A stretch of 64,000 bases of DNA, from contig NC_135255.1 in the NCBI RefSeq assembly GCF_964204865.1, forward strand, positions 20,336,001-20,400,000, written 5' to 3'. The notes under the pieces are model-generated. The model was not told the DNA's origin, made no database searches, and saw only the letters and a list, made by a program, of their open reading frames with translations. Both the position numbers and the translations under genes were made by a program. Below, one piece after another: positions 157 to 57,675 of this stretch. This DNA is from Styela clava. Lineage: Eukaryota. Every line of letters begins with the position of its first letter. The first letter of the stretch is position 1.

Positions 157-824
157 ATCACAACGCTCAGACCATGCCAACACAGCACACGTGACTGATC
201 TTGATTCTACTGAAATGGGAAACATAAGATATACAGGACAAAACGGAACGTTAGGTAATATGTTAGTAATTTCAAAGACAGCGCTGGGATATGCTAGAAA
301 GTTGCACTTTTCGTGTCCATCCGTTTTTAAATCTTGGGGTGTTTTTGTTATTTTTGTTCAACGCGCGTTATTGTCGTTTTTTATTAATCGGACATCAGAA
401 ACAACTCTCATGTTGGTGCTCGGTTACCCGATCCAGATTAGATATTTCCGAATTCTAATTCCAACAATGTCTCAATGTCTCATTTTGAACTTTCAATATT
501 TGTTTACAAAGCTCATTCGAACCCACAGGCATTCAACTAGATCGGTTATTAAATAAATAAATATTGACTCAATATTAACTAATGTTTCTGACAAAGTAGG
601 GGGCTTAAGGTAAACACTAATACCCTACAACAAGGACAATAAATTCCAGTATTAGATTTAAAATGTATTCAGGTACCGATGGATACGAAGAAGTTGAAGC
701 TGGGCCATCTGGCGGATATGAAGAGATACGACAAGCAACTGATGGATACGAGAAAGTGCAAATAAGGGCAACAACTCAGGAACAAGAAAACGGATATAAA
801 GACACGTATGCTAACATCGCATGA
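157..824 (+). CDS. Gene 0 (5'-truncated by window): last two exons of a class A CUB receptor, ITAM-like cytoplasmic tail
   Basis: Exons 157-254 (SQRSDHANTAHVTDLDSTEMGNIRYTGQNGTL) and 673-824 (GTDGYEEVEAGPSGGYEEIRQATDGYEKVQIRATTQEQENGYKDTYANIA*), with canonical AG/GT sites. Lengths (98 and 152 nt) equal the homologous exons of genes 2 and 8. Confidence 0.85.
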
Positions 825-3453
825 AAGTCGGAAAGCAAATATTGTGCAACAACACAGTGAAAACTTTTCTCTTATCAACCGACTCTCTTCTACAGAGCAT
901 TGATATTAATCACTTCTTTGTAGAATTTGCAATGACTTCATACGAAATAATTAGTTGCCGTCAAATTATTTCCTGTTTTATCTGAACAGAAATGTTTGGT
1001 GTTTCATGCCGTTCGAATGATTGCTTGGATATTAAAGAACTTCAAACAATTTGACCAAATAAAACTTACATGGGAATGAAAAAACGTCTTTTTTATAATT
1101 TATCTATTTTACCTATTTTTATCAACTATACAATTTTCTTCAAATGTTAGTATATTATTGTCGATTTGTAGCGAACTAAACTATCTATTTTACTTAATAT
1201 TATTATATGTATTCCCGACAGTTCTTCATATATGTCCCGAAGATAGTTTGATCTGATAGCGTACAACACTGTGGGAGCTCATCCCATATTTTCAAAAATA
1301 TGTTTTTTTATTAAATTTTCACACTATTTCATATAAAACTAGAATTCTGCAGTAATCTAAAAGCAGCGATATTCCATTGAGTTCGACACATTTTTAAATG
1401 CGTGGCTGTCGGCATCCTATTATAATAATGTTCCGAATCTGGTTCATTATTTTTCATCCTAAATACGACATTATCCTAACCATGTCATTAATTAAATATA
1501 TATCCCTGTCAAGGCCCGAACCAAAATTAGGCTTCATTTTAGAAAAACCAAATCGAAGAAATAATGAAATAAAGCCAATGATCTTAGAATGAATAGCTTG
1601 TCTGCGCAAAACTATCTCAACCAAGACAGTTCAAAGCAAGTAAGAGCTATTCTCCGATTAGTCACCAATGATGCGTTCAATCTAAGCAAGACTATGGCTT
1701 TGAACTCTGGTCTTTAAATTGGCACTTTACATATGTTTTCAAGTAAACCCCTTACACAATTGTTGTTGTTCAAGAGCCGTTGCTACGAACCCCGCGGTCA
1801 GTATCAGTAGTTTCTAAGTTCTAGAATTTTGAAACATTTTCCATCATATATTAAAACCTTTGGTGTCGCTGCTCGATCACGAGACTTTGTATGTGTAATA
1901 TAATAATAAATACTTGTCATTTAAACTTGAAGGATGAATCATTTGGCGACGCCTGGTTTTGAGACAACACACAAAGGGTATGAATACGCTATGGCGCAGC
2001 TTCGCATCTTTTTTAGTTTGACGTTTTTACACACTTTTCACTCCTAACAAGGCCGGGCGCCCCAGAAGTGTGTGAACTACTCGCCTACCGTGTAAAATGA
2101 CTGATACCTATGGGCAGGGGGTATATTCACTTGGCTAACACAAACAGTCCCCAAGCTCGTTATAGAACTTAAATAAGGTAAATCGGCCTAACCTGGTTCA
2201 TATACTACGCGAGTACCCGAAGTCATGCATGAGTAGTCATTGATATATAAGATATCTTGAATAACCGGGAGCGTAGCAGTCGGCATTGTTTAATTCATTG
2301 TACCCTGAGCGAGGTGACAGGCATGGATTACAATGGTTCTTACGAAACTGTTTGTGGGCCACGGTCTCCGCCCCTACTATTAATACGAGCTCAAACGCAT
2401 ACCCTGGTATAACCGAACAAGAGGCCGTTGGTCGCGATATCAATACGTTGGATTTGATTCGGCTGTGCTCTCAAGAGATATAAACGAATTTTTATTCTAT
2501 TTTAAACATGGAAACATCCGATGTACGTCTGATAAGCGTTTGTTGAGTTATCGAAAGCATAAGCAAAGACATGATTAAGTTGCGTTAATGAGAATTTGTT
2601 GCGTAATATGACACGAAGGTGAAATGAAAAGCAAAAACATGGATTGGGTATATATATAGGTTGTATATAAATAGGCCTACCTGTTTTTTGTACGACTTGT
2701 CCTATCTTGTTCAGTCAGACTTCTTTCAAGCCAGATAGATTGTGTTTTCAAAGAATAAATTTACAATGAAAACAAAAAAGTCCTGACTACTTTGTTGTGA
2801 TAGTGCATAATTTTTAATGCATGCCTACGGGATCCAATCCTAGATTTGCTCATTTTTTATATATGACCCATGCCAAATTATAATTCGCATAGCTAAGATA
2901 AGTCACGGGCCATATATAAATGTTGAGCAAATCTATGAACGGAACTCGTAGGCATGCACACTAAAAATTATGCACTATCACAACAAACTTGTCAAGACTT
3001 TTTTGCTTTCATTTTAAAAGACAAACATCTGACTGATTCAGACAGGATAAGACGTCGGTCGTCAAATATAAATTTATTTTTCGAAACACAATCAATCTGG
3101 CTTGAAGGAAATCACAGATTTGTGAGTTTTCGTAGCAGGAATATAGCAGATAGCAGGTACAGTCAAGACACCACCAATAAAAAAATATCGATATATTTTG
3201 TATTACTCTGTGTTTCTAAGCGCACAGGCTCCAGACGGAGTTTCGAGTGTTATATGTAATCGGAGTCGATATTCGAACCAGTTTAATAATTTCCTGATTA
3301 ATTCTGGTCAAATATATTATTTTCGATGTAATTTTCCTTTTTATCTAGTACCAAAGATCTTGGTTTATTGAACATGATTTGGTCGTGGATCGCCATCTTT
3401 CTTATAGGTGAGTAAACAAGAAGACAGGGAAAAGCAATTAATTGTATTCTAAC

Positions 3454-4023
3454 TGGGCTGGGAATTTCAGTGAAACTGCTTCAACCGCTAACCGGGTAAC
3501 CGCAGCGTCAGGTTATGTCACAATGGTCCTAGATCAATTTCGCAGTTCTGGCCCATTGGAGATTGGAGTGGTTAAAAGTTGATAAATCCGGATTTAAACA
3601 CGTAGCGGTAATAGCGCAAAATAGATGGCATCTTCTGTAGAAAGCCCGAGCCACTAATGTAAAAATGTGATACTTGAGAAAACCACGTTTTAAAATTAAA
3701 AATGGTAATTATCCATCTAGAGTTGGGAATGATTTGGAAGTTTAATTTGAAACATTATATTGTGACCGGAAACTGATTCTGAACTTATCATTGTCAAGTT
3801 TTATATTCAGCAATACTCCGATTATTTCCTTACATTTCCTTGATGCTAACGAATAAAATGAGTGATATCTTTTTGAATTCAAGGCCAAAATAGATAAATT
3901 GTGATAAACTATTCATTTGAAGAAATTGTGCAGTACCAAGGTGATTATTACCTGAGATGTCAGTTAACGGTAAAAAAACGTAACTGTTAACAATTTAATA
4001 TTGGTTAACCATTCCCAGCCCTA
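3454..4023. mobile_element. Non-autonomous hAT-like MITE in intron 1 of gene 1
   Basis: TIR TGGGCTGGGAAT...ATTCCCAGCCCTA; perfect 8-bp TSD ATTCTAAC (3446-3453, 4024-4031). The paralogous intron of gene 8 (~41091) has the empty site. Confidence 0.85.
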
Positions 4024-5597
4024 ATTCTAACTAAGTAGTGAACCAGCAAATAATTTTGACATAAAATGCTGCCATGCTTATCATGTTCCTGATAAAAAAA
4101 AAAATTGCATTACTTATTTTTCACTAATAGCATTCGTCGGCAAATTCTAATCTTGCTAGCTGTGGTTGCTAAGTTTGCTGAAAAAGCAGTCGCTAAAAAT
4201 ACCAATTTTACTATTTTTAATTTCTTCTTCATATGCCTACTCTAACCATTTGTTCAATGTGTTAAATCTATCTATATTGTTTAACACATCAAATCCTAGG
4301 TACTTCAAACGATTATAGAAAATTAAAACACTTGGTCGGACAAAAAAACCACTCTGCCCAAACACTACGAAAATCTCATAAAAGTATAAACGATTTTTTC
4401 AATGTAATTTTGTATTTTAGGCTCCTTAGCAGGTAGTAATGGTCAGTGTGGTGGAAAAGAAATTAACATAACAGGAGGAAATGGTGTAATAAGTTCTCCA
4501 AATAATTCCAAAGAATATGGAAGAAGTGCAAACTGTTCATGGAATTTCACTCCTTCGGAAGATTACGCCCTCGTGTTAACAATCACGTATCAGAGGCTTT
4601 ATATAGTCACGCTAGGAAACATAAAGCTATGCTTGGGATCGTACAGTCTTACAATAAATAACGGTATGGGATATGAAAATACTTGGATTTACTGTTGAAA
4701 ATATAACTTGCTCTACAAAAAACAACGGTTAGAATGTAGATGACCTTGTTAACCTAACTCATGCTCTATTTCATTCATTAAGGAGTGGTTAGCTATTTAA
4801 CGATGATGTGATAAAAAATAATCATCAACACATACTCTGTAACGATCAGGCTTCCCATATGTATTGATGATTATTTTTTATCACGTCATACCCTAATAGT
4901 AGTGCTCTATGTCAGACTATATTGTAAATCGGGGAGCATTCCTGACTGCGAATTCTATTGCTCAATCGTGTGAAATACCATTTATTCAATTCAGATACAC
5001 AAGAATGTACGCGATACGTTGATGCTACATATTCAGGTTAGCTGATTGAACCCTTTGAATACTTCGACTCTATGTGCGGCAGCGATGCAGAGAATAATGT
5101 TCGCGTTCAGTATGTATCGGACGGACGCACATATAATGGTTCGGGAGCAGTGACAGGCACAATGGGTTTTAAAATTCAGTACAAGTTTCTACAATGTTCC
5201 ACAGTTATAGGTAAGTTTTGGATTTATTTCTGAACAATAAATATGAAATTTTTCTGTGGAAATGAAACTTCAAGTTTCAGTCATTATTAATTTGGCCTTT
5301 TGATTTTGAAGTATTCACTGACACAAGTCAGGAATCACAAAATAAGGCAGTTATATCAAATATAACGTTTGAAATTGGATAATTCCTTGTTTTCTAAGAA
5401 ACAACGACTGAATACGACCAACAAGCGAGTACCAATCCAGACAACAACCATTCCGTTTCTACCTCAAATGTAGCCCCGCACTCGACCGTTGCTACGATAA
5501 GTGCAACCGAGATTACACAGACCGATACAACAACGAAGTCCGCTATCACGGGTAAGCGTACAGATTAATTTCTCCTGACAGTTATTATATTCTATAA

Positions 5598-5779
5598 CAG
5601 GGGAGTGCAACTAGCTATACCTGAGCTTGTGCGAAGCTAGCAAGGTATGTCATAACATCAATTACCAACGTTTTTGTACCTGCAACTATTAGAAATCATA
5701 TATTGAATAAAGGTGCAGGTCGCGGTTTTGCCCAGATGTTTGTATTTGTCCCTCCTGTATTAAAGGTTGCACACCCCTG
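5598..5779. mobile_element. Short hAT-like MITE
   Basis: Ends CAGGGGAGTGCAAC...GTTGCACACCCCTG; flanks TTCTATAA/TTCTAAAA (8-bp TSD, 1 mismatch). Confidence 0.7.
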
Positions 5780-8641
5780 TTCTAAAACATAAAAAACAAA
5801 ACATCTTTGAAATTTTTATTGGGTAAATACTAAATGAACGTTTCAAGATTTTCAGTCTAAATAGGCCTGCAGTACATATAGCTTAGCTTAAGAATTTTTT
5901 CACCGTGACTGAAGCTGTGGTATTCGTGTTTAATATAGGTCCAAGATTTACTCTCAATAGTTTGGTGACAAAGAAAATTTTAAGCATCATATGAAATAGA
6001 TCCCACAGTGTATTCTGAAACTCAGTAAATACTGTAATTGTCGAGTAACGTATGTTTAGTGAGACAAATCAAGAAGTCAAATCCAATTGAAACCGGAAGC
6101 CCTCAAAATTATTTTACAAGCTAATCAAATCCACAAAAGTTCATACTAAATTATACGTCTTTTGCATTATGCTGAAACGAGCAAACGCAAATAATGAGTT
6201 AAATTTCTCATCTAACTAAAAAGATAATATTTAAATTTCCCATTGAATGTAGTGCATAAACTCTAATAAACCCGATGTAAACAAATACATCTTACAATTA
6301 GGTCTGTTGTTATGTGAACTATCATGCAGCAGAAAATTAATCATTCAGAACTATTTCCTATTATAACAGATACAGAAAACGATGATGCAGCATCCAAAGA
6401 AACTGATGGGAATTCAGATGGGATAAGCGACACCGCAAAGCTTTTCCTCGTTTCTATCCCAGGATTCATTGGCATTATCATACTCGTGGTGACTGCAATC
6501 GTATTTTGCAGGAAAAGAGGGTAATCAACTAAAATACTTCCTTGATAAGGCAATTCAATATTTGTCTTGGTTATACACGTACAGAGATAAGTATATAATT
6601 AGCATAAGCCGAACGGATATCTTGCATAGGCGCAATGTATAGTTACTGCGTTGAACCAAACCATATAATCGTTGCTTATAAGATATTTCATATTCAACCC
6701 CAGTGACTTGAGTAGGCAATTCCGAACGAAAAAGCTTTCAGTTCCAATAATTTTAGCTTTCCAATCTAAGTATCGCGGCCTTGCCCAGAGCCTTGTTCGC
6801 AGTGAAAGTCTGAAAACGCCTTCAGCTTCTGAATCCACCCAAGGTAACATTTCATGAGCGTTGTATAAGTCAAAGTTAAAGTTGAATATAATTGAAAAAA
6901 TATGATAAAAAATATAAGTAATGAATATCATTGCGATAATACGAGGATATATTTTAACAGGGACAAATCTCAAAAATATAAAAATTTTGAAAAAGACAAT
7001 GTTGGTGAAAATAAGATGGGAAATGCTGAATCTCCAATCCAAGAACCTGACCACGACACTGCTACAGGTACAAACTTAATAAATAGATCGTGATACGGGA
7101 ACACATCCCAAGTTGACTAAAATCTTATATCTAAAACCTCCTCTTCAATTTTAAAAACGTTTCGCTCTCGAAAGGAAGCGCTGAGTACAAAAAAATGAAC
7201 ATGATGAACTCTTGAGAAAATAATAGTGTACGATCGTTTTAATTGAAAAAAGTTTTTGCCAAGTTGCAAAGTCATATAAACTTGTCTAAAAGCAGTATCG
7301 ATTTAAATTAAAAGCGAAATTATATCAGTATATATTTCAGCCGAAAATAATGAGCCGACAACCTCAACAGTTCAAGACGAGGAAACTCCGTATGCAATCA
7401 TGTATTCTGCTCTTGCTCGGAAAGACAAAGAGGGGGATGCAAATGAATTATTATGGGGTAAACTAAATATTCCGATTACAAAAACATTTGTAGTGAGAAA
7501 GATCACAAATGAATGAGCAACGTTCACATATCATAACGTATCTCAGGGTCTCTACAACTATTCTGCATTGATCCAAGAACACATCAAATCGCATAAAAAA
7601 TCATTTCATGGAATCAAATGCAATATGTTTTTTTTTAGATGAAAAGAAAACATCGGCAATTGAAGAAGACGAGCATAAATACGACATGTATTCTGCCGTT
7701 GTACGAAAGACTGAAGGAGGTGACAAAGAGACGATTCATGTGTGATCGCCCGATAGTTTTCCTACTTTTTCATACGATGACGGCTTGCTTATGTTTTAGA
7801 AGTCTGACTTGCTCTTCACACCTTGATTTTCAAATTATAACCCAAGCTTATAGTGAAAGTGAGAAGGGGGACTGGGAATTATTAGACACGTTTGCTTAAT
7901 TTTTGTTTGTTTTTGGCAGTCGTGTTAATTTTGTAATTGGGATTGTTTACTTTGTGATTAATTACTGGGCCAATCGCGTTCAAATATTATATCATGAGCT
8001 GATAATAACATCACTTCTATACATTCTCTGGAACCCCAACTTTTTAGATTTTTCATCTAACGCTATCTGCGAGCTTACGTCCATCGAAATAAGTCAGTTC
8101 ATGGTGCTCAGCGCCAGTACCCTTTCGTTTTCGTTCATTTAACTTAATGTATATTATTAGTATTGGACTCTTTATTATTAACAACTATCCATGGATTTAA
8201 TCGACTCCCTACGCTTGTATCTGTCTCTCTCAACTGTTTCTGGGTTCTTTTTAATTGAATTAACTGAGCAATGCAGATAACGATTCATGAGCATTTTTAT
8301 TATTTTATTATCTTTAAAACAGCATATTATCGTAGCTGTAATCTTATTATTTTACTTTTCTCTGCTTGGACTGGAAAATTCTCACATTTAATAATATTAT
8401 TTGTCTTGCTGCATTCAAACAAGTCTTTTGTTTTTTAAGCCTTAAAACTGTCAAGCAGGAAAACGTAAGATTTAAATTGACACAGACATTTTGCATACCT
8501 ATACACCTATTAGCAACAATCACTTATATAACGCCATTGATTTAGCTGGAGCAATTGCATCACGCCAAATACCTTTTTGAAAATCACCAATGAGATCGCG
8601 TGTTTCTTAGTTTTAAAATCTCGATTTGTTAGTGTTTAGAC

Positions 8642-9562: not shown

Positions 9563-12500
9563 ATGGTTTCTTCGTTGATCGCCATCTTGATTTTAGGTAA
9601 GTAAAGCAAGTAACAATAATCAACTGTATTTTATATATACCGTATACGATAACAAACTACGACAGAAATTATTCTCAGATTTCTGATCAAAAATCTCGCA
9701 TTTCCCATATTTTATCGATAAATCTTAGTCCCGCTCAGCTCAAAAGAAAGTTACAAAAAAACTATTTGCGCGAAATATCAATTTAACAATGTTTTTATTT
9801 TTCTGCCATTTCAAGTGTTGAATCTATCCCAACCAAGGACACATTAAATCCCAGATACTTCGATTTGAAGTATTACTTTTCCAACTGCTGCCTACTCTTT
9901 CTCATATTATCGCATTTCCGTTACTGTCAAGAAAAATCATTTAATAGCACAACCTTATACAATAACCTCATTTTCCGTACTCTAGGCGCTGTATCCGGTG
10001 ACAACAGTCAATGTGATGGAGAAGAGATGAACATAACATCAGGAAACGGTGCAATAAGTTCTCCAAATTATCCCAAAGAATACGGAAGAAGTGCAAATTG
10101 CTCATGGAAATTCACTCCTTCGGAAGGTTACGCTCTCGTTTTGACAATCACATATCAGAGGCTTTATATTCTTGAAACTTCGGGAAAGCTATGCTTGGGA
10201 TCTTATGTTCTCTCCATAAACAATGGTTAGTATTACGCCAATATTAGTTGAGAATTTACAGAAGTTCTCTCGTATGAGTTGGGGTTGAACAATTTAGGAA
10301 AACCAAACAAGCTATGCTTGGGATTTTGTGTGCCTTTCCATAACCAATAGTAGTTAGTGAATATAGCGATATTTGAATTGAATGTAGAAAATTCACTAGC
10401 TTGGATTTGAATAAAATCTCACAATAAAGTGGTTTCCAATTTATTCTCAATACATTTGATTGATTGATTTTTTACCCTCGATTTATCAACTCTGAAAATG
10501 CTACGTAGTCTTATTCCTAAACATGTGCATGGCAAGGCCAGATTAGGCTTGCCACGATGGAGTGATAAAACGACGCTCCCGTAGTATGTGCACCAAGATG
10601 ACGAACATAGTTCGTGTACCAGGTTAGGATGAGGTCATAATTTTATTCCAATTTTCCTTATTTTAGTTCTATCACGAGTTCGGAGACTAGCCAAGTGACT
10701 CCCGTAGTATTTGTATCTGAAATTATGGCCTAATCCTAACCTGGTATACACACTTCGTTCCGGTATCCGCCATCTTGGTTCACATACTACGGGAGTACCG
10801 ATAAAACTATATTTGATGCACAGGAAGATACATGGATGGTATACGTGCCGCTACATTGATTGAAGTTTCCCATGTGAATCGGAAAACGAACCGATGATAG
10901 GAATCTGTTGGAATTGTCGATAAAACAGTAATCGACATCATAAAGGAATCGGCGGATATTTGCCAATGTTTCTGAATGTCATAAAAGTACTCATTCGAAA
11001 TAGCCTCTTTGCTTACTAGTATCGCGCAAAGGCAAAATAGTGTGTTCATTTTACAATGAATGTCAAAACGATAAAATTAAATTCAGATGCACAAGATTGC
11101 TCGAGATATTTAGATGCCAGATATTCATATACACTGACTAAACCTTTCGAATACTTCTGCGCTGGAGACGCAGGGAATAAATCGAGTGTTCATGTTCAGT
11201 ATATATCGGACGGGCGAACATATACTGGTTCGGAGAATGTGATTACAGCAGCAATGGGTTTCAGCATCCAATACAAGTTTTCACAATGTTCCACAGTTAC
11301 AGGTAAGTCTTGAACAATAAATATGAAATATTTCAATCAAAGTCACTAAACTTATTTATAATAAGTCTTCTTCAAACAAAGACGAGTAATCATGCACACG
11401 CATAAAGATTTTTGTGCATGGAATTATTTGAAAGAACGAATCTTCTCCATTCGGTGTTTCCAACTGATTTACATATTGATTTACACACGCGAACATTGAG
11501 TGTGCTAGATGTGGCAAGTGTTTGAAAGCGTAAGACAAAAAAATGACCCTTGATTCTAGTGAAAACCATTGGCTATTAGGAACGAAGTGTATAAGTGGAA
11601 AAATAAAACATAAATTATTCATTTTAATGCAGCACGCGCTCACCTGGATACAACTAATGCTCCTACTACCACACACTATCCGTCTTATCCCACTACTGAC
11701 GTAGTCAACACGGTTGAAATATTACCCAATACTGCAAATTTGGAAGTGGTTACTCGTATTAACGCTAAGACAACAGGTTTTAAAATCAGACCAGAAATAG
11801 GCATCACGTCGGATCGTTCAACAATCACCCCATCGCAAAATACTATGGGTAACTATGAATTTTGTATGTAATATTTAACCATCGGATGATGAAACCCATC
11901 CTGGGTAAAATTACCCCATTTTAGTACATGGTGTCGTTGCTTTTCTAAGTTTGTCCGAATATTCTTTTGCGTTCTATATTTAATCTGCTAATTGTTAGAT
12001 GACGTGCTGTGTACTGAGTGATCAGTTATGGACATTCAGTCTTTTTTTTCATCCCACTGCATAAAACTGCATTCGAAATTGATTGAGCGATTCAAAGGTT
12101 ACTATATACAGTACTTGTAACAGGAACAGTCAGCATATGCGCTGATAGACATTCGAGCACAAGTGGGATGAGTCAAACAACTCTAATTCTCCTCCTCTCC
12201 ATACCGGAATTTATCTTTGTTTTACTCATGATCGTGGCTGGGATTGCATTCTACAGAAAAAGACGGTCCGTATTATTTATGATTGGAATTATAAATCCTA
12301 ATCTTTATCCTAAAGCTTAATGATCCGATATTCATTTCATCGCCAACCGACACTAACAAAATATGAAACGATATGTGAATTCCTAAATTTTCTTAGAAAC
12401 CAAAACTGGTTACTGGGCAATGGCACACGGGATCAAAAAGTACTCAGGACAATTTATTTCATAAATTTGCAACAATGATGAATCTTCTCGTAGCCAGAGT

Positions 12501-13557
12501 GTGTGTTAGTTACGTTATAATTTTTTCATGAACGTACTAATTAATCATAAAGTATGATCTTAAAAAAGGCGTGGGTCACGCTTTATGAATCGTAGGTACG
12601 TGACGCACGACTAATAAAATTAGTAGTCGAGTTGCGTTTTCAATCCAATCACTTTTTCACTTACACTTTTCAGAACAACAATATTAGTACTACATACATG
12701 GATTAACCTAGTTAGAATGTTTTTGATGAGGGTTGGTATTACAATTATTTACATCCTCTGTACGCGGTGCTGTAATCTCTGTCCAAAATTAAACAAATCA
12801 TCCTAAACTTCGAGCGCTTGTAAACTTGCTACTCCTCCCACATTGTCGATATTTGTATCTTATGGAAATATTTTAAGGACCCCCCTAAAGACGAATCTGA
12901 TGTGATTTAATATACCCAATATTTTCAAAGATCACAGCGCTCAGACCATGTCAACACTGCACAAGGGACTGTTCCTAATTCTACTGAGATGGGAAACATC
13001 AGTTCTATGAGACAAAAAGGAACGTCAGGTAATCTGTTAGTAATTTCAAATACAGCATTGGGATATACTAAAAAGTTGCACTTTTCGTATTGAACCGATT
13101 TAAAATCTCAAGGTGTTTTTGTTATTTTCGTTCAACGCTGTTATTGTCGTGTTTATGTATGTCAGTGGAACAACTCTCATGTTAGTGGTTGGTTTTCCGT
13201 CCCAGATTAGATATTTTCGGATTCCAGCAATATCCGGCTCATTTTGAACTATCAATATTTGTTAATAGAACTCATTCGAACCCACAGGCATGTAACTAGA
13301 TCAGTTACTAACTTTTCTGACAAGGTAGGGTACTAAGGTTGATACAGTACTATCCTACTACAACAAAGAATAGGAATTTCAAAATAACATATAGAATATA
13401 TTCAGGTACCGATGGCTACGAAGAAGTTCAAGTCGGGCCATCTGGTGGATATGAAGAGATACGACAAGCAACTGATGGATACGAGAAAGTGCAAATCGGG
13501 GCAACATCTCAGGAACAAGAAAGTGGATATAAAGCCACGTATGTGAACGTTGCATAA
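9563..13557 (+). CDS. Gene 2: class A CUB-domain type-I membrane receptor (acidic TM, ITAM-like tail), apparently intact, 365 aa, 7 exons
   Basis: Exons 9563-9596, 9986-10225, 11087-11302, 11633-11848, 12124-12265, 12931-13028, 13406-13557 splice into an open 1098-nt frame. CUB hallmarks C..NITSGNGAISSPNYP..Y..SANCSW, SDG, GFSIQY; TM LILLLSIPEFIFVLLMIVAGIAFY then RKRR; tail YEEV/YEEI/YEKV/YVNV. Confidence 0.88.
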
Positions 13558-14958
13558 AAATCGAAAGACAAACATTGTGCAACAATACAGTAAAAGATTT
13601 TTTTCATCGACCGACTTCCTAACTACAAAGCTTTTCTATTACTCACTCCAGTGTGGAATTTTAAACGACTTCACAGGGTTGGGTGGTAACTGACTCCAAT
13701 GACCGCATGGTCGTATCGTTGCCACCCAGTATGTACCGAGAACTTTTATATTTCAATCTAATTTCATTTTGTTGTGTATATGTTTCTGGTGGACGAACAA
13801 AATAAACTTTCGCATACGTATGAATTTGTCGTCGTAAAATTATTTCATACTTGAACCGAAATGTTTTAAAATTTGTTTGAAAAATTAGTATCACATTCAA
13901 AAATTTAAATAATTTTGACCAAAGAAAACTTTCATTGAAATGAAAAGCTATTCAAATTTGCTTTATGTTTGATCCATTTACGTATTAGTTCTATTAATAT
14001 TTGCTAATTATAAAGTTTTATACGTTTTTGACAGTCTTTCAAATATTTCACGGGTATAAGTAAGTTGCTGTTACCATCTCGGTGGTCGTTTGTAAATATC
14101 CGCTTGATGCATTTTAATTGATAATAGAAACAATGCTTTGCTTAACCTGTATTAAATGAACTTTGTTGGACTTAAATGAACTTTGGGAATGGGAAAACTT
14201 CTTTTTCATACTTTATCTATTTTACTTATTATTATCAACTATACAAAATCAAGCTTCATTTTAGAAAGACCAAATCAAAGAAATAATGAAATGAAGCCAA
14301 TGTCCTTAGAATGAACTAAGTCAATCTCAATCGAGACAGTCCAAAGCAAGTAAGAGAAATTTCCAAGTAGTCACCAACGATTCGTTCACTCTTAGCAAGA
14401 CTATGGCTTCGAACTCTGGTCTCCAAATTGGATTGGCACTTCACGTATATGGATTCAACTAAACCCCTTGCTTACACAGTTATTGATGTTCAAGAGCCGG
14501 TTTCCGGTTCGGAGTAGCCTGACAAATAGGCCAAGTCCGACCGAAAGTCAATAGGTGTCATTCTATGACATTTATTTATCAATTAAACATAAGTTTCTGC
14601 AACTTACTTGTGAGAATTTGCATGTGTATTATATATTAATAAAAACTTATCGATTGAACTTCAAGGGTGAATAATTTGGCGACGTCGTGGTTCCGGATAT
14701 CAGACCAGGGATATGAATACGCATTGCTATGGCGCCACATTATACATTTTCAATATGTGTTGTTTAGACTATTTTCGCTCCGAACAAGTCCGTGTATAAG
14801 CAGTAATTTGATATGCATGGTACTATATTTCAGAGGACCACAAGCTTCCCATCTAGCAGTGTTCACTAATTTATTGTACTTTGAGCGAGATCAAAAAATG
14901 GGTGGCAATGTTTTGCACAAGACCTTTGGTGGGTCACGGCGTCAACCCTTACGGGTTG
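10470..14958 (+). repeat. Segmental duplication copy 1 (paralog ~41760-45965)
   Basis: Near-identical by eye across introns, exons 3-7 and the 3' flank of genes 2 and 8; boundaries approximate. Confidence 0.85.
10571..10800. mobile_element. MITE with long TIRs (family also at ~2055-2218 and ~21770-21885)
   Basis: CTCCCGTAGTATGTGCACCAAGATG...CATCTTGGTTCACATACTACGGGAG inverted repeat, flanked by ATAAAA on both sides. Absent from the paralogous intron in gene 8 (~41861). Confidence 0.8.
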
Positions 14959-14961
14959 ACG

Positions 14962-17683
14962 GGTCGTTGATCACCATCTTAATTTTAGGTGAGTAAACTT
15001 ACCAAATATCAATAATTAATTGTATTTTAACTAAGCAATAATCTAATAAACAACGTTGACATAAATTTCCTCCATACTTCTGATTAATAAACTTGTATTT
15101 CTCATATTTCATCAATAGCTTTCATCTCACTTTAGTAAAATTCGTCAGAAAACTAGTCGTAGGAAATAAAATACTGCAATATGATGTCAATACTAACCAA
15201 TCGTTCAAAGTTTTATGCCTATACTAATCGAAAAGACATATATTCTTATTTAAATCGAAAACCAAAGGATTCTGCCAAACCGAAACTATTACTATTCTTT
15301 CTACTATCGCATTCCCGTTACTGCTTAGAAAAACAGAATATAAAATTTTTTATTGTCATTTTTTGTCATCCAGGAACTGCAGTCGGTAGCCATGGTTAAT
15401 GTGATAGAAGTGATATGAACATAACATTAGGAAAAGGGCGAATTAAGTTCTCCAAATATTCTCAGAAATACGGAAAATCAGCAAATTGCTCATGGAAATT
15501 TATTCCTTCGGAAGGTTACGCTGTTGTGTTAACAATCACGTATAAGAGGCTTTATAATATTGCAAACTGGAACAAACTATGCTTGGGATCTTACAGGCTT
15601 ATGATAAAAAAACGGTAGGATGAATGAAAATTGTTTTGATCTCCTTCATCTGATCTTGGTCAATTATTTTAAGAGTTGAAAGATATTTACCCCCAAACAA
15701 ATATTTAAATTACATAACTTCAATATGCAATCTTTGTCATCACATCAAGGAGAAGTTAAGTAATATCTTAATTTGTACCTCTCCATGCCCGACGCTCTAG
15801 AAAACTAGAGCAAAATGACTGCGATACGCAAGAATGTACGAGATACAAACATCTTACTGCATTGATCGAACCTTTTGAATACTTCGACTCTATGTGTGGT
15901 GAAGACGCCGGAAATAAGCAAAGCGTTCATGTTCAGTATATATCGGACGGACGAACATATACCGGTTCGGGGACAGTGGCGACTTCTGTAAGGGGTTTCA
16001 GTATCCAGTATATACAAGTTTTCACAATGCCCCACAGTTACAGGTAAACATGCTAAATATTGTTCATTTATGAATTATATACATTTAAACAAAGAAAAGT
16101 AATAATGCACACTTATGATGATTTCCATGACCAATATAATAGATAGATTCAAATCATCTCCAGATTTTTTTTACTGATTTTGATTCCCAACAAGTGATGA
16201 GAAGTGCTTCATGTCACGTGATAGGAATAACTCTAAATCGAGTTTAACCTCGATTTTCTTGTGTGTGTGTTTCTTGTAACAATGTGTACAGGAAAGTAAA
16301 GCAGCATTTCATTTATTTTCATCATCATGCAGCAATCCCCTGCCCGAATACAACTAATGCTCCTATTACCACACAATATCCGGGTTATCCTACAACTGAC
16401 GAAGCCACCACGGGTGAAACTTTACGCTGTAAGGTGGGATCCGGACACTCATACATCCGATGAGACAACTGGGATCGAAAAAGGGAATGAATTAATCACA
16501 ACGTCTGACAAGTTAACATTGAAAACTACCATGGGTAGTACCAGCGGTAGAAATTTTTGAATGGGTGTGTGTAGTTGTTTGCATACTCAGTACGTTTTGT
16601 GTATGGCGTTTACTGTATTACTGATTAGTCGATCGCTAGATATTTTGAAGATTTTGGGCGATTGCAGCCAAAAGCAGGTTGGCCACCCCTGTTATACAAC
16701 GTTATGTATTTTCAACAGAAACAATCAATACAAACACTGATAGAATCTCAAGCACAAGCGGAATGAGTCAAACAACTCTAATTCTCCTCCTCTCCATACC
16801 CGAATTCATCTTCGTTTTACCCATGGTCGTGGGTGGGATTGTATTTTACATGAAAATACGGTGAGTATACTTCATGCTTAGAAATACAGCCGTATACCCA
16901 TTGAAATAACCGATAAATATTGTATTTTATATTCAGGTATTGTGCCCACTATTAATTAAACAAATCATCCTAAACTTCAAGCTAAATATTATAGATTTAC
17001 TCAACTGCCACATTGACGACATTCGTGTCCTATGAAAATATTCTAAGGACTACCTTTATAGATGAAGCTGATGTGATATTATATATTATTATTATTTTAG
17101 ATCACAACGTTCAGACCATGCCAGCACAGCACAAGGGACTGTTTTACTAATTCTACTGAGATCGGAAACATCAGTTCTACGGGACAAAACGAAACGTCAT
17201 CTGGTGATGTGAGATATGCTAGGAAGCTGAACTTTCTTCGCTATAACGTTTTAAAAACTGGGGTTTTATTGATGTTTTAGATTTTCAACGCTTGTTATTG
17301 TCGTCATTTAGGCGTCATTGGAACAAATCTCGTAATATTAGTTTGTTTTCCGTTCTAGTGTACATGTTTCTGATTTCAGCAATGTCCGCGTATATTTCGC
17401 ATTTTGAACTCATTCTAACCGACGTAAATAACTGATGTAATATTAATTGATGTTTCCGAAAAAGTAAGGTACTAAGCAAAAACATTCCTATCTTAATACA
17501 GAGGTAATAGGATTCATGATATATATTCAGATACCGATGGCTACGGAGAAGTTCAAGCTGGGCCCTCTGGTGGATATGAAGAGATACAACCAGCAACTAA
17601 TGAATACGAGAAAGTGCAAATAAGGGCAAATAACTCACAAACAAGACGCCGGATATAAAGCCACGTATATGAACGTTGCATAA
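14962..17683 (+). pseudogene. Gene 3: class A CUB receptor pseudogene
   Basis: Signal exon remnant 14962-14988 lacks ATG; in-frame TAA at 15397-15399 in CUB exon 1; CUB exon 2 acceptor deleted (~15823); frameshifts in CUB exon 2 and the tail exons. TM exon 16719-16860 still reads LLLSIPEFIFVL. Confidence 0.88.
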
Positions 17684-21581: not shown

Positions 21582-24500
21582 ATGATTTGGTCGTTGATCG
21601 CCATCTTGATTCTAGGTAAAGTTATATAAGTGTTACTAATTAATTATATTCTAACTTAGCAATAAACAAACAAACAACTTTGACAGAAATTTATTCTATA
21701 TCTCGGATAGATAAACTTTTATTTCTTATTAATAGTCAACCAGTAATCATTTTTCCTCTCATTCTTATTTCGGAGCTCCAAAAGTATGTGCACCAAGATG
21801 GCGCACAACCTGAACATAGTATGTGTGTACCGGTTTGGATTCAGGTTGTGTGACATCTTGATGCACATACTTCTGGAGAACCATCATTTCATTTATAGCT
21901 TTCGTCGAAATTTGGAAAAATCTGTCAGAAAACAATTCGTACGAAATAAAATAATGTACTATGATGCTAATCATTTGTTCAAAGTGTTATGCCTATACTA
22001 ATCCAGAACACATCAAATCTTATTAAAATAGAAAACTGAAGGCTTACTCCTGACCATTCTACTATCGCATTCCCGTTACTGCCATGAAAAATTTCCTGAT
22101 AGCATATACAATTATCTCATTGTCATTTTCTGAATCCTAGGCGCTGTAGCCCGTGGCAATGGTCAATGTCATGGAGAGGCGATGAGCATAACATCAGAAA
22201 ACGGCGAAATAGATTCTCCGGATTATGATAACGAATACGGAAAATCAGCAAATTGCTCATGGAAATTCACTCCTGCGGAAGGTTACGCTCTTGTGTTAAC
22301 AATCACGTATCAGAGGCTTTATATTCTTGACATAACGAGCAACAATAATCCAAAAAAATATTGTTTGGGATCGTACAACCTCACTATAAACAACGGTTGG
22401 TATCATATTATTAGAAAATAGTTTTAAAAGATCGATTCCCTGTACGACATATGCCAATTCCGATTTTTCTTGGGGGCGTTTAGGTCACTCGAGATTTCGA
22501 ATTTACTAATATCGATGTGGTGAAGCGTCCACCTTGCTTTAGGCATTGGTGAATATAATTGAATTAAAAGAACGTCTTGGGGTAATTGGTTTGATCGCAT
22601 AGAAGTATTTCGCAAAGTGATTTGCTATTTTACCTTGCGCATGACAAAACTGAAAGAATTTTATTCAGATACTCAGGAATGTAGGAGATACATTGATACC
22701 AGATATTCTACTACAATGCCCTTTCAATATTTCGACACGATGTGCGGTGAAGACAAAGAAAATAAATCAAGTGTTCATGTTCAGTATATATCTGATGGAC
22801 GAACATATAACGGTACTGAAAAAGTGCAAACCGTATCAATGGGTTTCAGAATTCATTACAAGTTTTTAGAATGTCCCACGACTGCTGGTAAATATTGATG
22901 AAAACATAGACAAACCGTAAATTAAGCTTTTATCCTTTTAACTATACATAAAATTTCTTCGACTTTGATGAGTACCTCGCTTTGCGTAAGAATTGTAATT
23001 TCGAAACTAATATGAAAATGCATACATTTTTTTATTCGAATGAAGACGAATCCGCAATTATACAAAAATAGCAGTTTCAAGCAATTACCTTAAAAAATAT
23101 ACTTCACCTTGATATAATCCTTTTCTTAGAAACAACAACTGATCATGTCCTAACAAGTATTTTGGAAGGAAGCTCCTACATAGAACAAACAGGTACCACC
23201 TTTGAGGACAACCGTACTCTTTCTACTAAAGGTAAGTAGGTACCCCATGGACGTTTGCTGCAATGCGTACAATCAAGACTACACAGGCTCTGGCAACAAT
23301 AAAAACTTCCATTTTTATTGTAATGATTTTGTTAATTACATCAGGTAAATTAAATATCGCGAAAATCAAAACCTTGGTAAGTCAGGATTGGAAAAGCCAT
23401 TATTTTTTAACAATGTTTGTCAGGCTATGGTTCACAATTTAGGACAGAATTCGACTGCAATGAAAATCGTAAAAGATCCCAATAGATTTATCACATTACG
23501 GGTCAGTTGGCGCATGATATCGTAATTCAAAAATTTATTATCAATATTTAATTGCGTTGGTAAATTGTTTTCTTAAGTTTTATTAAAAATGGAACCAACC
23601 ATAAACCATACAATGATGGTGTCGGGTTTCAAAACCAATACAAGCCACTTTATTAATGTTATTATAACAGACACAGAAAACAATGACGTTGGAACTTTCA
23701 GCGAAACTGACGGCGCCAACTCACATGGAATAAGTGATACTGCAAAGCTTTTCCTCGTTTCTATCCCAGGATTCATTGGCATTATATTACTTGCGGTGAC
23801 TGCAATCGTATTCTGCAGAAAGAGAATGTAATTAACTCTTATTGAGTACTTCCTTGATTAGCCAATAAATATTTGTCTTGGTTATATACGTAAAGAAATA
23901 CCAACTGGTCAAATGAAGCGTAAGCTAAACGGATATATTGCATGGGTGCAATGACCTAGTGGGGATGGCGTCGGACTGTAAGAGTCGTTGATATTATATT
24001 TCATATACAACCGTACACCAGCCATCTAGTAACTTATACATTCGCAATCGCGAATCATTATTATTATCGTGACTGCCTGTCGGGAACCTTGTTCATAGGA
24101 AAGTCTAAAAACGCCTATAGCGGCAGAATTCATCCAAGATAGGATTATATGAAATCGTTGTATACGGTCAAGTCGAATATGATTAAAACAACAAAATATA
24201 GGTCCCGAATATCATCGTAATAATATAAGAATATTTGTTAACAGGGACAAATATCAAGAAAACAAAAATGTCGAACAAGACAATGTAGGCGGAAATAAGA
24301 TGGAAAATGCTGAATCTCCAATCAAAGAATCGGACCAAGACACTGCTGCAGGTAAGAACTTATTTAATGGATCTTAATACGAGAACACATTCCAGGTTGA
24401 CTAAAATCTTATATCTAAAACTTGCTCTTTTATTTTAAAAACGTTTCACTCTCGAAAGGAAGCATAGAGTACAAAAAACTAAGCTTTATAAGCCTTGAAC

Positions 24501-25049
24501 ATCATGAATTCTTACGGAAACGACAGTGTACGGTTGTTTTGATTGAAAAATAATTGTCAAGTTGCAAAGTCATAAAAATTTGCCTAAAAACAGGAACAGT
24601 TTAAATCAAAGCGAAATTAAATATCAATGCTTAATTCAGCTGAAAATGATGAACCGGCAAATTCAACAATTCAAGATGAGGAAGGTCCATATACTATCAT
24701 GTATTCTGCACTTTCACGACAAGACGAAGAAGGTAATAAAAAGAGAACCATATGTGGTAGACTGAATATTTTGACGACAAAAACATACCAGTGATAAAGA
24801 TTACAAATTAATAATTTAATGCGTTTACATAACGTGACATATATTAATGTTTTTAGAAGCATTTTGCATTGGCCTAAGCATCCTTGAAATCGCAGGTAGA
24901 AATATTTCGATACATCAATTACCATATATACTTTTATTTCAGATGTGAAGGAAAACTCAGAAATTAAAGAAGACGGGCACAAATACGACATGTATTCAGC
25001 CGTTGTAAGAAAGATAGAAAGAGGTGACAAAGAGACGATTCATGTGTGA
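21582..25049 (+). CDS. Gene 4: class B CUB-domain type-I membrane receptor (ITIM tail), apparently intact, 357 aa, 8 exons
   Basis: Exons 21582-21615, 22141-22395, 22669-22887, 23130-23231, 23671-23827, 24245-24351, 24640-24732, 24943-25049 give an open 1074-nt frame. TM LFLVSIPGFIGIILLAVTAIVFC; tail GPYTIMYSAL...KYDMYSAVV...ETIHV*. Confidence 0.88.
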
Positions 25050-29217: not shown

Positions 29218-32200
29218 TTTATATAACGTATAAAATTTTTCAAAAATATTGTCTGTAGGAACTAAATATGGAAATAAATACTCTATGGCCCAAGCTTCGT
29301 TAATTAATATTTCGAGCTCTTGTATTCGAAGCTTGAAAGGTTTTCATTAAGTCAAGCATGGTAGTAAGAAGAAGATAATTGTATCAAATTTCATTGTTGG
29401 ACACAAAGTAGACTCAATGGATTTTGTTAAATTCTTATCGTTGTTGTTGGGATGATTTTTATTGTTTGGAGAAATCGCGACTAATCGATTTCTAATTTTC
29501 TGTGCTTAGAGAAGAAATAAATCACTGGTCAATCTAAATGAGGAAGCTCCGTATACAATCATGTATTCCGCTCTTGCACGAAAAGAAGAAGAAGGTAATG
29601 AAAGAAAACCATATGTGATAGACTAAATATTTTGAGGACAAAAACATACTATTGATAAAGATTGTAAATGAATAATTTAAAAAGTGTGAATTGAATGCGG
29701 TTACATACAAGGACATATCGTTCAAAGTTTTGGTCTGAGCTCCCTTGAAATTGCAGAAATAAATATATTTAAGAAATCAATTAACATAAATACTTCTATT
29801 TCAGATATAAAGGAAAATGCAGCAATTGAGGAAGACGAGCATAAATACGACATGTATTCAGCCGTTGTACGAAAGACTGAGGGAGGTGACAAAGAGACGA
29901 TTCATATGTGATCACCCGACAGTTGTCCTGCTTTTTCATACGATTACTGCCTGCTTATGTTTTAGAAATCTGCCTTGCTGTTAAGACCTTGATCCTCAAA
30001 ATATAACCCAAGCTTATAGTTAAAGTGAGAAGGGGTACTGGGAAATATTAGACACGTTTGCTTAATTGTTGTTTGTCTTTGGCACTCGTGTTACTTTTGT
30101 AATTGGGGTTGTTTTTTTGTGATTAATTACAGGGCCAATCGCATTCAAATCTTTTATCATAAGCTAAAAAGATAATGATGACAAACTTCTATAGGATCTC
30201 TGAAACCTTTTGTTTCACCCACATTTTTTCCGATTTTCCATCTTACACTATCCGTGAGCTTTCGTCCATCGAAATAAGGCAGTTCACGGACTCGGCAGCA
30301 GTCCCCCCTCCGGTTTTGTTCATTTATTTCAATGTTTTATATTAGTATTGGACTCATTAATATTAACAATTTTTCAAGAATTTTATCGACTTACTACGTT
30401 TCGTATATGGGTTTCCCAACTATTTCTGGGTTCCTTTCTACTCATCCCCCTTTAATTGAATTAACTGAGCAAGGCAGATCACGATTCGTGAATATTTTCA
30501 TAATTATCTAATCATTCAACGTAATATGCTCGCAACTATAATCCTATTATTTTAACTTTCTCCGCTTGGGCTGAAACTTTTCTCACATTGTAATAATATT
30601 TGTCCTGCTGCATTCAAACTAGTCTTTGTATTTTCAACCTTCGAAATATTCCACACAGTTGTAAGGTGAACAGGAAAATGTTAGATGTAAATTAAAATGT
30701 AAATTTTGCCGTTAGCAAAACAAAATAAGTAGTCAAATTTGGCGGCGTGGAATAATAAACTAAGTCGTTAATGGTGGCGAAATATAGTGACATCTAAAAA
30801 TGCGCACAATCAGAATAGAATCCATGTGAATTCTCAGATGCTCGAATGAATTTTTTTTAAATTTAAGCAAAAATCATAATCGAGATTTCAAATGCGAGCC
30901 GGCGATCAAATTCGGTCTCCAAAATAAATTCGGTCTCATAACACTCACAACTTTTTGAAAAAAATGTGACCATTACCGTTCTGTTGCATTGACCAGTACT
31001 TTTCATCGCAAGCAATTCATTATAAGGATGGTTCATAACCCTCACGATTGTACTTCCGTTGCTTATTCCAAGATGTTTCAATATTTGATAACGATACGCG
31101 ATGTGATCGTTCGAAACCTGTAGAATGATATTGTGGTGTCGGAGTCGAATGTTTGGCTACCCTACTTCGAGATTCAAAGTCAAAATGTTTCTTTACCCGG
31201 AATCGATTGTAAATTTTCCCCGACTTCACATACCCGATCTGAGGACGCGGGAGGTAATTCACTATTTCATCAAACAAATATGCAAAATCGTATTCAATGA
31301 TATATAAAGTAGTTTTGTTATAGACTGGGAGGTGGCGATACAAAGCGTAGACAGTAATATACTTTCTCTTAATTACTAATCACCTTAGCATCAAACTCCC
31401 GGAAACATTAGCAATTCGTATGTCTTGTGGATCAGAACGTATTGTCCGTTAAGACTCAATCACATAACATACTGGAATATAGCAATACAATGCGAAATAG
31501 CGATACAGTGAGAAATGGGGGCGATGGCCTTCGAATACGAATATTCGATTTATGGTGAAGAGAAGAACGAAATTAGGCATTTTATTATTTTAAAAATTCA
31601 AATAGGAATAAAGTAAACGTAAAAAATAATCTCGGCGCCTGGTGAATTTATTGGTTAGGATGCTAACTTATACCTTGGGATAAATATGACACTGAATTAA
31701 TAATTACTGTGAATAATGGTTCATTCTGATTGTGGAATGAAAAAACCCACTAACTTTATTAACCATCCGTTTAACGTGATAAATTGCAACCTAGAATACA
31801 CTGAATCCAGGCAATTCGAAGTATTATAAAAATTAAAACAATTCGCACAAAATGACTATTCTGTCCCTGCAACCCAAGACGAAAATCTAATAATATTATA
31901 AACGATTTTATCATTGTAATTTTGTGTTTTAGGCTCGGTATCTGGTGGCAATGGTCAGTACAGTGGAAAGGAAATTAATATGACATCAGGAAACGGTGGA
32001 GTAAGTTCACCAAATTATCCCAACGAATACGGAAAATCAGCAAACTGCTCATGGAAATTCACTCACTCGGCGGGTTACGCTCTTGTGTTGACAATCACGT
32101 ATCAGAAGCTTTATATCGTAAAAAACGCGGAAAAGATATGTTTGGGATCGTACATGCTAACAATAAATAGCGGTAAGAGACATATGAATTGTCGTGTCCC

Positions 32201-44000: not shown

Positions 44001-44599
44001 GCACAAGGGACTGTTCCTAATTCTACTGAGATGGGAAACATCAGTTCTAAGAGACAAAACGGAACGTCAGGTAATCTGTTAGTAATTTCAAATACAGCAT
44101 TGGGATATACTGAAAAGTTGCACTTTTCGTATTGAACCGATTTAAAATCTCAAGGTGTTTTTGTTATTTTCGTTCAACGCTGTTATTGTCGTGTTTGTGT
44201 ATGTCAGTGGAACAACTCTCATGTTAGTGGTTGGTTTTCCGTCCCAGATTAGATATTTTCGGATTCCAGCAATATCCGGCTCATTTTGAACTATCAATAT
44301 TTGTTAATAGAACTCATTCGAACCCACATGCATGTAACTAGATCAGTTACTAACTTTTCTGACAAGGTAGGGTACTAAGGTCGATACAGTACTATCCTAC
44401 TACAACAAAGAATAGGAATTTTAAAATAACATATAGAATATATTCAGGTACCGATGGCTACGAAGAAGTTCAAGTCGGGCCATCTGGTGAATATGAAGAG
44501 ATACGACAAGCAACTGATGGATACGAGAAAGTGCAAATCGGGGCAACAGATCAGGAACAAGAAAGTGGATATAAAGCCACGTATGTGAACGTTGCATAA
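41026..44599 (+). CDS. Gene 8: class A CUB-domain type-I membrane receptor, apparently intact, 366 aa, 7 exons
   Basis: Exons 41026-41059, 41412-41654, 42139-42354, 42681-42896, 43172-43313, 43973-44070, 44448-44599 give an open 1101-nt frame. TM SIPEF; tail GYEEVQVGPSGEYEEIRQATDGYEKV...TYVNVA*. Confidence 0.88.
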
Positions 44600-55400: not shown

Positions 55401-55960
55401 AAGCACTGTGTACAAAAAACTAAGCTTTATAAGCCATGAACAATTTGAATTTCTGCGGAAACGATAGTGTACAATTGTTTTGATTTAAAAAAAATTGTCA
55501 AGTTGAAAAGTCATGAAAATTAAATATCAATATTTAATTCAGCTGAAAATGATGAACCGGCAAATTTAACAATTCAAGATGAGGAAGCTCCGTATACTAT
55601 CATGTATTCTGCCCTTACACGACAAGACGAAGAAGGTGATAAAAAGAGAACCATATGCGGTAGACTAAATATTTTGACGACAAAAACATAACAGTTATGA
55701 AGATTCCAAATTAATACCGGTATTTTAATACGTTTATATTCCGTGACATATAATTCAAAGTTTTTAGAAGCATTTTACATTGGCCCAGACATCCTTAAAA
55801 TTGTAGGAAGAACTATTCCGAGAAATCAATTATCTTAGGTACTTATATTTCAGATGTAAAGGAAAATTCAGCAATTGAGGAAGACGAGCAGAAACACGAC
55901 ATGTATTCTGTCGTTGTACGAAAGACTGGAGGAGGTGACAAAGAGACGATTCATGTGTGA
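52498..55960 (+). CDS. Gene 9: class B CUB-domain type-I membrane receptor (ITIM tail), apparently intact, 351 aa, 8 exons
   Basis: Exons 52498-52531, 52747-52992, 53378-53608, 53802-53903, 54634-54769, 55186-55292, 55543-55635, 55854-55960 give an open 1056-nt frame. TM LFLVSISGFIGIIILVATVIVFC; tail APYTIMYSAL...HDMYSVVV...ETIHV*. Confidence 0.88.
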
Positions 55961-57061: not shown

Positions 57062-57401
57062 TAGTTGCACGCAAACGTCACAGTTATTTGGCTTAGACAA
57101 GGTTTGCTTTAGCAAAGCAATAGTTGAGAATTTGCATTAAGAAGAGTTACAGTATGGACATGGCCACTAACATATCACGAGTTGAGCGCCCAATTAGAAC
57201 TTTGACAAAATGATATACATGTTTGTAGTTTTAGTTGCACGCAAACGTCACAGTTATTTGGCTTAGACAAGGTTTGCTTTAGCAAAGCAATAGTTGAGAA
57301 TTTGCATTAAGAAGAGTTACAGTATGGACATGGCCACTAACATATCACGAGTTGAGCGCCCAATTAGAACTTTGACAAAATAATATACATGTTTGTAGTT
57401 T
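57062..57401 (+). repeat. 170-bp tandem duplication
   Basis: TAGTTGCACGCAAACGTCACAG... starts at 57062 and again at 57232; single copy in the paralogous region near 9090-9260. Confidence 0.85.
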
Positions 57402-57641: not shown

Positions 57642-57675
57642 ATGGTTTGGTCGTTGATCGCCATCTTAATTCTAG
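57642..57675 (+). CDS. Gene 10: signal-peptide exon only (remainder outside the window or lost)
   Basis: ATG GTT TGG TCG TTG ATC GCC ATC TTA ATT CTA G|GTAAG = MVWSLIAILILG, the same 34-nt exon as in the other copies; flanks match those of gene 2. Confidence 0.75.

Follow-up and report, generated by a model that had tools for sequence, protein, structure and literature searches.

Does a single residue in a membrane-spanning helix decide how a family of ascidian receptors assembles? The question is raised by a tandem receptor array of Styela clava at C6:20.22-20.41 Mb. We analysed a window of 64,000 nt (contig NC_135255.1, forward-strand positions 20,336,001-20,400,000, assembly GCF_964204865.1), beyond which the array reaches about 120 kb further upstream. 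A first-pass annotation had noticed that genes with one type of cytoplasmic tail (class A) carry Glu at a transmembrane (TM) position where genes with another type (class B) carry Gly, and had likened class A to CD3 chains that may need a partner with a basic TM residue. The two classes do differ at this residue; what looked like a perfect switch is a single inherited change to which there are two exceptions, and the Glu is likely a lineage marker, not a partner-requiring switch. The better finding is the array itself, which by its sequences appears to encode single-CUB receptors with ectodomains swapped between activating-like tails (YEEV/YEEI/YxN) and tails resembling the ITIM (immunoreceptor tyrosine-based inhibitory motif), a paired-receptor pattern.

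The Glu/Gly difference in the TM exon

The reference class A gene of the window, gene 2, is NCBI LOC120332060 (uncharacterized). Its product, XP_077970232.1 (P0001), is a S. clava protein of 365 residues with a signal peptide, a single CUB domain spread over two exons, a Ser/Thr stalk, a TM segment and an 83-residue tail. The TM exon corresponds approximately to P0001 residues 237-283.

9563..9596, plus strand: signal-peptide exon of gene 2 (exon mapping)
9986..10225, plus strand: first CUB exon of gene 2 (Pfam PF00431)
11087..11302, plus strand: second CUB exon of gene 2 (exon mapping, AlphaFold model, fold search)
11633..11848, plus strand: Ser/Thr/Pro-rich stalk exon of gene 2 (exon mapping)
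12124..12265, plus strand: class A TM exon of gene 2, 142 nt, AG..GT, with the stalk end, the SIPEFI helix and a stop-transfer RKR; donor GTCCGT
12207..12209, plus strand: GAA codon of Glu264 of gene 2 (codon read)
12931..13028, plus strand: first cytoplasmic exon of gene 2 (exon mapping)
13406..13557, plus strand: class A tail exon of gene 2, with YEEV-x7-YEEI-x6-YEKV, YKAT and YVNV

Against the Pfam CUB profile PF00431 (cut-off 21.4), P0001 scores 34.2 bits and the gene 2 CUB domain, listed at its first exon, 34.9 bits, and CUB-containing chains rank top in a Foldseek search (best E 2.6e-5); the related proteins P0161, P0031 and P0030 score under the PF00431 cut-off.

A six-frame scan recovered SIPEFI in all four class A TM exons first annotated (starts at 12198, 16793, 37866 and 43246) and SI(P/S)GFI in all three class B ones (6453, 23760 and 54702), with GAA and GGA, respectively, at the switch position. 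The further claim, that Glu tracks perfectly with the tail, is true of those seven exons and breaks down when TM exons are compared across the whole array (n = 18), where two open-frame class-A-type genes lack Glu. Nine TM exons belong to class-A-type tails: six have GAA, one has TAA (a pseudogene) and two are without both Pro and Glu. The remaining nine (seven class B, two class C) all have Gly. Further paralogs, which had been proposed as a test of the association, thus show that a class A tail does not imply Glu, with these two exceptions, whereas Glu still implies a class A tail.

Perfect tracking among the seven exons is to be expected, because two clades necessarily give it and many columns are equally fixed. 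Fixed differences separate the four class A from the three class B exons at 10 amino-acid columns (of 32) and 23 nucleotides (of 96), among them Leu/Lys five residues before SIP, Phe/Gly at the third residue past the Glu and Tyr/Cys where the TM ends. The 18-row TM tree requires one change for the Glu and two for tail class, which bears out the caveat, raised with the original observation, that the correlation could reflect one ancestral change. The class A TM clade that includes both genes without Glu has support of 99/99, with a warning from the tool that long branches meet at the split between A and B/C. The tree omits genes 5 and 6 together with two copies located at window-relative -84 kb and -65 kb (TM absent or half deleted), as well as a degenerate TM-like remnant at -47 kb. 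Genes 3 and 7, two of the four class A copies first noted, are frameshifted. Seven Glu-type copies exist in all, three of them open in the exons checked (genes 2 and 8 and a copy at L017, which NCBI splits into two models) and four broken.

The first of the two exceptions encodes P0161 (XP_039255099.2, 435 aa), a protein without the Glu and with 10 Tyr repeats, all of whose exons map individually to L014-L015; P0013 and P0162 are variant records under the same gene id, and the TM of P0013 is identical to that of P0161. The second, at L016-L017, also has an open frame as we read it. The cytoplasmic exons of both genes align with class A, and in pairwise alignment their TM exon differs from that of gene 2 by a 3-nt insertion and a 6-nt deletion. 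Their long class-A-type tails (L014:9056-9421, L017:234-725) are built of 10/12-residue Tyr repeats, and the P0161 tail holds four YxN sites, which we take to be LAT-like. A paralog on chromosome C5, P0030, combines a YEEI/YENL tail with an uncharged TM.

CUB ectodomains are swapped between tail classes

The class A tail reads YEEV-x7-YEEI-x6-YEKV, with the spacing of an ITAM (immunoreceptor tyrosine-based activation motif) and Val in place, plus YxN sites. The canonical ITAM YxxL/I-x6-8-YxxL/I is found in none of seven class-A-type proteins scanned, and in all seven if Val is allowed. Class A tails measure 83-154 aa with 5-11 Tyr, on acidic or uncharged TMs. Class B tails carry IMYSAL followed 27-34 residues on by a second motif, YSAV or YSVV; three of five class B proteins scanned match the ITIM pattern [ILVS]xYxx[LV], and the other two read IMYSAI and FMYSAL. 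A third tail type, class C (L009:4610-6670, L010:3500-4750), has a SIPGFIG TM and a short tail with one ALYSTI motif (P0031).

The ectodomains follow a different history from the tails. On the tree of CUB exon 1, approximately unbiased tests reject clades of class A, Glu-type and class B genes (p 8e-69, 4e-6 and 0.003), and tail class changes eight times, against two on the TM tree. One well-supported ectodomain group of five genes mixes Gly with class C, no Glu with long class A, and Glu with short class A tails. The introns behind the TM exon align in five of nine within-class pairs (gene 2 with gene 3, gene 2 with U30, and all three B pairs; scores 110-524) but in none of 12 pairs between A and B (scores 20-26, under shuffle maxima). 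TM-tail crossovers between the classes would therefore find no homologous stretch, and the linkage of TM to tail is explained without selection. Together, these results show that the TM exon and tail are inherited together while CUB ectodomains are swapped between tail classes. No whole-domain signal of positive selection was seen on the CUB exons (mean pairwise ratio of nonsynonymous to synonymous rates, dN/dS, 0.33 over 21 pairs and 0.53 over 10 pairs).

Transcript evidence came from contigs of four runs in two studies, which we guess to be RNA. They show spliced joins in class B gene 1, and they join a class A stalk to the TM exon and a cytoplasmic exon to the tail over a GT..AG gap. In the stalk-TM contig the Glu codon is without differences among the matches listed. 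The gene 2 TM exon is covered by none of the contig pieces listed. Its donor, GTCCGT, is shared with gene 8 (12266-12271 and 43314-43319), other class A exons having mostly GTGAGT; the donor is used in the NCBI models and bridged by none of the contigs listed, and read-through there would stop the protein about 17-19 residues past the TM.

More distant single-CUB relatives lie at L032-L037 (C5), L039-L040 (C17) and L041-L045 (C6:19.86-20.07 Mb); the TMs recovered at these loci are uncharged, and P0030 and P0143 have Tyr-rich tails. All relatives with at least 43% identity over the full protein are from S. clava, and two Logan proteins at 38-39% identity (P0076 and P0091) have the layout of the array receptors.

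Explanations for the TM Glu

The first-pass annotation had asked for TM boundaries to see whether the Glu is buried. Glu264 falls within all the best 19-, 21- and 23-residue windows, 15 residues ahead of the first basic residue; since 15 residues are too few to span the membrane alone, we place it probably within the bilayer, and its position inside the predicted TM windows argues against a site outside. A position-weighted hydrophobicity score, a rough guide with ad hoc weighting, puts it between position 3 of 19 and position 8 of 23. The Glu probably lies in the outer third of the helix. It is invariant in six of six copies without the stop, as are 16 of 24 TM columns. On a rough star-tree estimate (mean dS 0.35 and dN 0.16 over 10 pairs), the chance of no amino-acid change at the Glu is 0.10 if the synonymous rate is applied and 0.35 with the amino-acid rate of the exon, which is not significant. 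A TM-exon profile searched against PDB sequences gave one chance match (E 6.9).

On balance we lean towards reading the Glu as one change in the class A TM exon, inherited as a block with the tail, and as a likely tolerated outer-leaflet residue, not a partner-docking switch. Class A proteins would then signal alone. Ligand clustering through the CUB domain would lead a Src-family kinase to phosphorylate the acid-flanked YEEV/YEEI/YEKV repeats, which could dock the SH2 domains of Syk and Src while the YxN sites dock Grb2 or GADS, as the docking preferences of these domains suggest; class B would recruit a SHP-type phosphatase through IMYSAL and the second Tyr motif. Within the membrane, L-S-I-P-E-F may form a Ser N-cap with the Glu at N3 beside Pro and an N'/N4 hydrophobic pair, so placed that the Glu would be satisfied inside its own helix near the outer headgroups and would at most tune self-association. 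The capping box is defined for soluble proteins (PMC11101637). PMC12582321 describes homologues of Syk, Src, SHP-1, Grb2 and GADS in Botryllus, itself an ascidian, and reports that ascidians lack LAT and SLP-76.

Several results weigh against this reading. Kyte-Doolittle windows place the Glu about nine residues into the TM segment, and the AlphaFold helix of P0001 runs unbroken over residues 253-290 with no capping break (mean pLDDT, the model's predicted local confidence, is 52 overall and 78-80 over 261-280). Among short-tailed class A TM exons the Glu is retained in six of seven, the sole loss being the pseudogene stop, and none of nine Gly-type genes has a class A tail. The two genes without Glu are sisters (98/94) with longer tails, and P0161 has four (V/I)xYxx(V/L) strings that fit the ITIM pattern; they could be a separate class, in which case the link between the Glu and the short tail would be perfect. 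On the free TM tree (61/37) the Glu may have been lost in these genes or may never have been gained, and their expression is predicted, from NCBI models.

Self-association, our tentative second choice, is possible but on the doubtful side: hydrogen bonding between protonated Glu residues in the outer leaflet would pre-dimerise short-tailed class A proteins, and the genes without Glu would compensate with extra Tyr repeats. The Glu does lie inside the predicted helix and is kept in most short-tailed copies, and the two sister genes without Glu have about twice as many Tyr repeats. Genes 2 and 8 encode an unusual seventh Cys in the ectodomain (241/242), placed in the stalk close to the TM (12124-12150 and 43172-43200) and possibly free for a disulfide-linked dimer. 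Precedents exist in Neu V664E / V659E (PMC9535940) and in CD79A, with a Glu that lacks a basic partner and a CD79A/B polar dyad (PMC13107469). The I-P-x-F string also matches the Fas-type hydrophobic-Pro-x-hydrophobic motif, though this is true of both classes. Against it, retention of the Glu is within neutral expectation, and with four of seven Glu-type copies broken the open ones represent two lineages.

The CD3-like partner model is unlikely, and its explicit form, in which two class A chains bind a receptor with a TM Lys or Arg and stay in the endoplasmic reticulum without it, improbable. Class A does share an acidic TM residue and tandem Tyr motifs with CD3 gamma/delta/epsilon, zeta, FcR-gamma and DAP12 (PMC13107469), the combination of the residue with an ITAM-like tail is suggestive, and an acidic TM residue is common to all ITAM subunits of vertebrates (PMC4536121). 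The depth of the Glu, 15-16 residues before the first basic residue, seems to resemble that of zeta, FcR-gamma and DAP12. The likeness ends with the acidic residue. No strict ITAM is present in the seven class-A-type proteins. In the known subunits an intron splits the ITAM inside its first Tyr module (PMC4536121), whereas all Tyr motifs of the gene 2 tail sit in the last exon (13406-13557). The ExxxT or DxxxT-type motif, which in CD3 and DAP12 puts a Ser or Thr a helical turn beneath the acid, is absent, Glu+4 being Val in six of six copies and Glu+3 Phe or Leu, although zeta likewise lacks the motif. The ectodomain is a CUB domain by Pfam and Foldseek, neither Ig nor a few residues long; being each gene's own, variable and exchanged with inhibitory-like genes, it argues for direct ligand binding. 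Homologous tails also occur on uncharged TMs, the Glu being missing in the two homologues described above. Searches of the genome with the Pfam profiles for ITAM (PF02189) and TCR zeta (PF11628) gave nothing over the cut-off, with controls equally silent, so that they are uninformative on absence.

The basic-TM partner that the first-pass annotation proposed to seek nearby did not emerge. In 364 kb, a regional and not a whole-genome scan, basic TMs gave three matches against six in a reversed control, none of them family-like, while the same scan recovered five Glu-type exons; a central basic residue is also absent from the family TMs on C5, C17 and C6. CD79A is a closer analogue than CD3 or DAP12, because it carries a TM Glu that lacks a basic partner and is individually dispensable for expression at the surface (PMC13107469). 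It resembles class A in having an ectodomain, the Glu and three Tyr modules with spacers of about seven residues (PMC13107469, PMC4536121); it differs in its Ig domain, in its obligate partners CD79B and membrane immunoglobulin, and in its canonical YxxL/I modules.

Least of all do we credit a heterodimer in which the class A Glu pairs with a Lys at the N-terminal TM edge of class B and couples activating to inhibitory tails: that Lys stands five residues before SIP in seven of seven class B TM exons, as a fixed A/B difference among the seven exons first annotated, and class A and B genes are interleaved along the array, but it lies 8 residues (~12 angstrom) outward of the Glu level, an Asp three residues before it could pair with it, the same position is Arg in the Glu-type gene 0 and Val in class C, and known motifs have a centrally placed Lys.

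The remaining window and relation to known receptors

The long open reading frames (ORFs) of the window comprise only receptor-family exons and one retroelement. The other genes are as follows.

157..824, plus strand: gene 0, cytoplasmic and tail exons, class A, broken; a Glu-type TM lies just upstream at L020:9837-9967
3374..7745, plus strand: gene 1, class B, Gly codon 6462-6464; its CUB exon 2 contains a TAG in this assembly
14955..17683, plus strand: gene 3, class A, Glu codon 16802-16804, with a stop and frameshifts
21582..25049, plus strand: gene 4, class B, Gly codon 23769-23771, full-length model P0007
28126..29911, plus strand: gene 5, CUB exons and class B tail exons, no TM exon
31933..33361, plus strand: gene 6, CUB exons and class B tail exons, no TM exon; NCBI model P0002, 166 aa
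35799..38690, plus strand: gene 7, class A, Glu codon 37875-37877, frameshifted; NCBI model P0021 skips the TM exon
41026..44599, plus strand: gene 8, class A, Glu codon 43255-43257, full-length model P0003, nearly a copy of gene 2 from CUB exon 2 on
52498..55960, plus strand: gene 9, class B, Gly codon 54711-54713, SISGFI, full-length model P0012

The TAG of gene 1 is at 5037-5039, yet a spliced contig spans three exons of the gene, each showing 2-3 differences. A third TM type in genes 5 and 6 was considered and rejected, since stops lie on both sides of the hydrophobic stretch and the tail exon follows CUB exon 2 after only about 340 nt. Across 4.2 kb, genes 2 and 8 share 94% identity, with identical TM peptides, and gene 8 is a mosaic, 94% identical to gene 2 from intron 2 on and 83% in CUB exon 1 (40950-44650 against 10799-14959). 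In one contig, a part of CUB exon 2 that equals gene 2 is linked to a part of CUB exon 1 that shows 19 differences relative to gene 8. In a class B copy at window-relative -73 kb, two long ORFs resembling long interspersed nuclear elements, named by eye, lie between the TM and tail exons (L013 ~2000-6100).

A long terminal repeat retroelement occupies 57739-62724, just behind an orphan signal-peptide exon (57642-57675); its 215-nt repeats are 99.5% alike, and its minus-strand ORF of 1376 aa matches protease, reverse transcriptase, RNase H and integrase. A tandem duplication of 171 nt, 99.4% alike, lies at 57062-57402, and short interspersed high-copy repeats in introns and spacers (2090-2170, 10600-10800, 36880-37140) dominate the contig depth.

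Vertebrate paired receptors, which include KIR, Ly49, SIRP and CEACAM, offer the nearest pattern. The array has 18 TM-bearing copies with tail classes A, B and C in one cluster (C6:20.22-20.41 Mb), ectodomain exchange between the classes and ITIMs in inhibitory-like members. As in CD300A/C (PMC12447643), similar ectodomains sit on tails of opposite type in a tandem cluster, and exchange between classes and many broken copies are further likenesses. Unlike the vertebrate receptors, those of the array have a CUB rather than an Ig or lectin ectodomain, and whereas the common vertebrate activating form has a basic TM, a short tail and an adaptor, class A combines an acidic or uncharged TM with a long Tyr tail of its own. 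CDCP1 and DCBLD1, which resemble the array receptors in the atlas at 0.84-0.85 and serve as leads only, share a CUB ectodomain, a single TM and a Tyr tail that serves in docking, but their ectodomains are larger and multi-domain, and to our knowledge they do not form paired arrays.

Among invertebrates, the Botryllus FcoR receptors are likewise ascidian, type I single-pass, clustered and recombining, with ITIM and other Tyr motifs in their tails (PMC12582321, PMC12065747); they differ in having Ig and Sushi ectodomains and FF partner genes, where the array receptors have a single CUB (PMC12582321). No sequence relation between the two was seen. The word 'charged' is absent from the main texts of PMC12582321 and PMC12065747, and the FcoR sequences in the supplement of PMC12582321 could show charged TM residues. 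A hemocyte glycoprotein of Halocynthia roretzi is an invertebrate protein with an ITAM-like tail of its own (PMC5465252), and Hydractinia Alr1/Alr2 have their own ITAM/ITIM-like tails and recombining ectodomain and TM-tail modules (bioRxiv 2022.03.25.485889), but on Ig domains. We found no description of tunicate CUB receptors with ITIM- or ITAM-like tails in the titles and abstract openings of the open-access literature.

A broader proposal is that this is an independent tunicate CUB paired immune-receptor system in which the TM Glu drives assembly with itself or with a Lys-bearing inhibitory paralog, and in which ITAM-like and Grb2-type repeats in cis replace LAT; as a whole we regard it as rather unlikely. 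Were the Glu an assembly switch, charged-residue receptor assembly would extend outside jawed vertebrates, the split between binding and signalling chains being described as a jawed-vertebrate trait in PMC4536121; the evidence lowers that claim. What the array offers is a natural series in a solitary ascidian, in which related CUB domains come with three kinds of tail: ITIM-like, short and Tyr-bearing beside a TM Glu, or long and Tyr-bearing where the Glu is absent. It bears on how ascidians signal without LAT and SLP-76, and on how recognition domains may be freely replaced while Tyr-based signalling logic persists.

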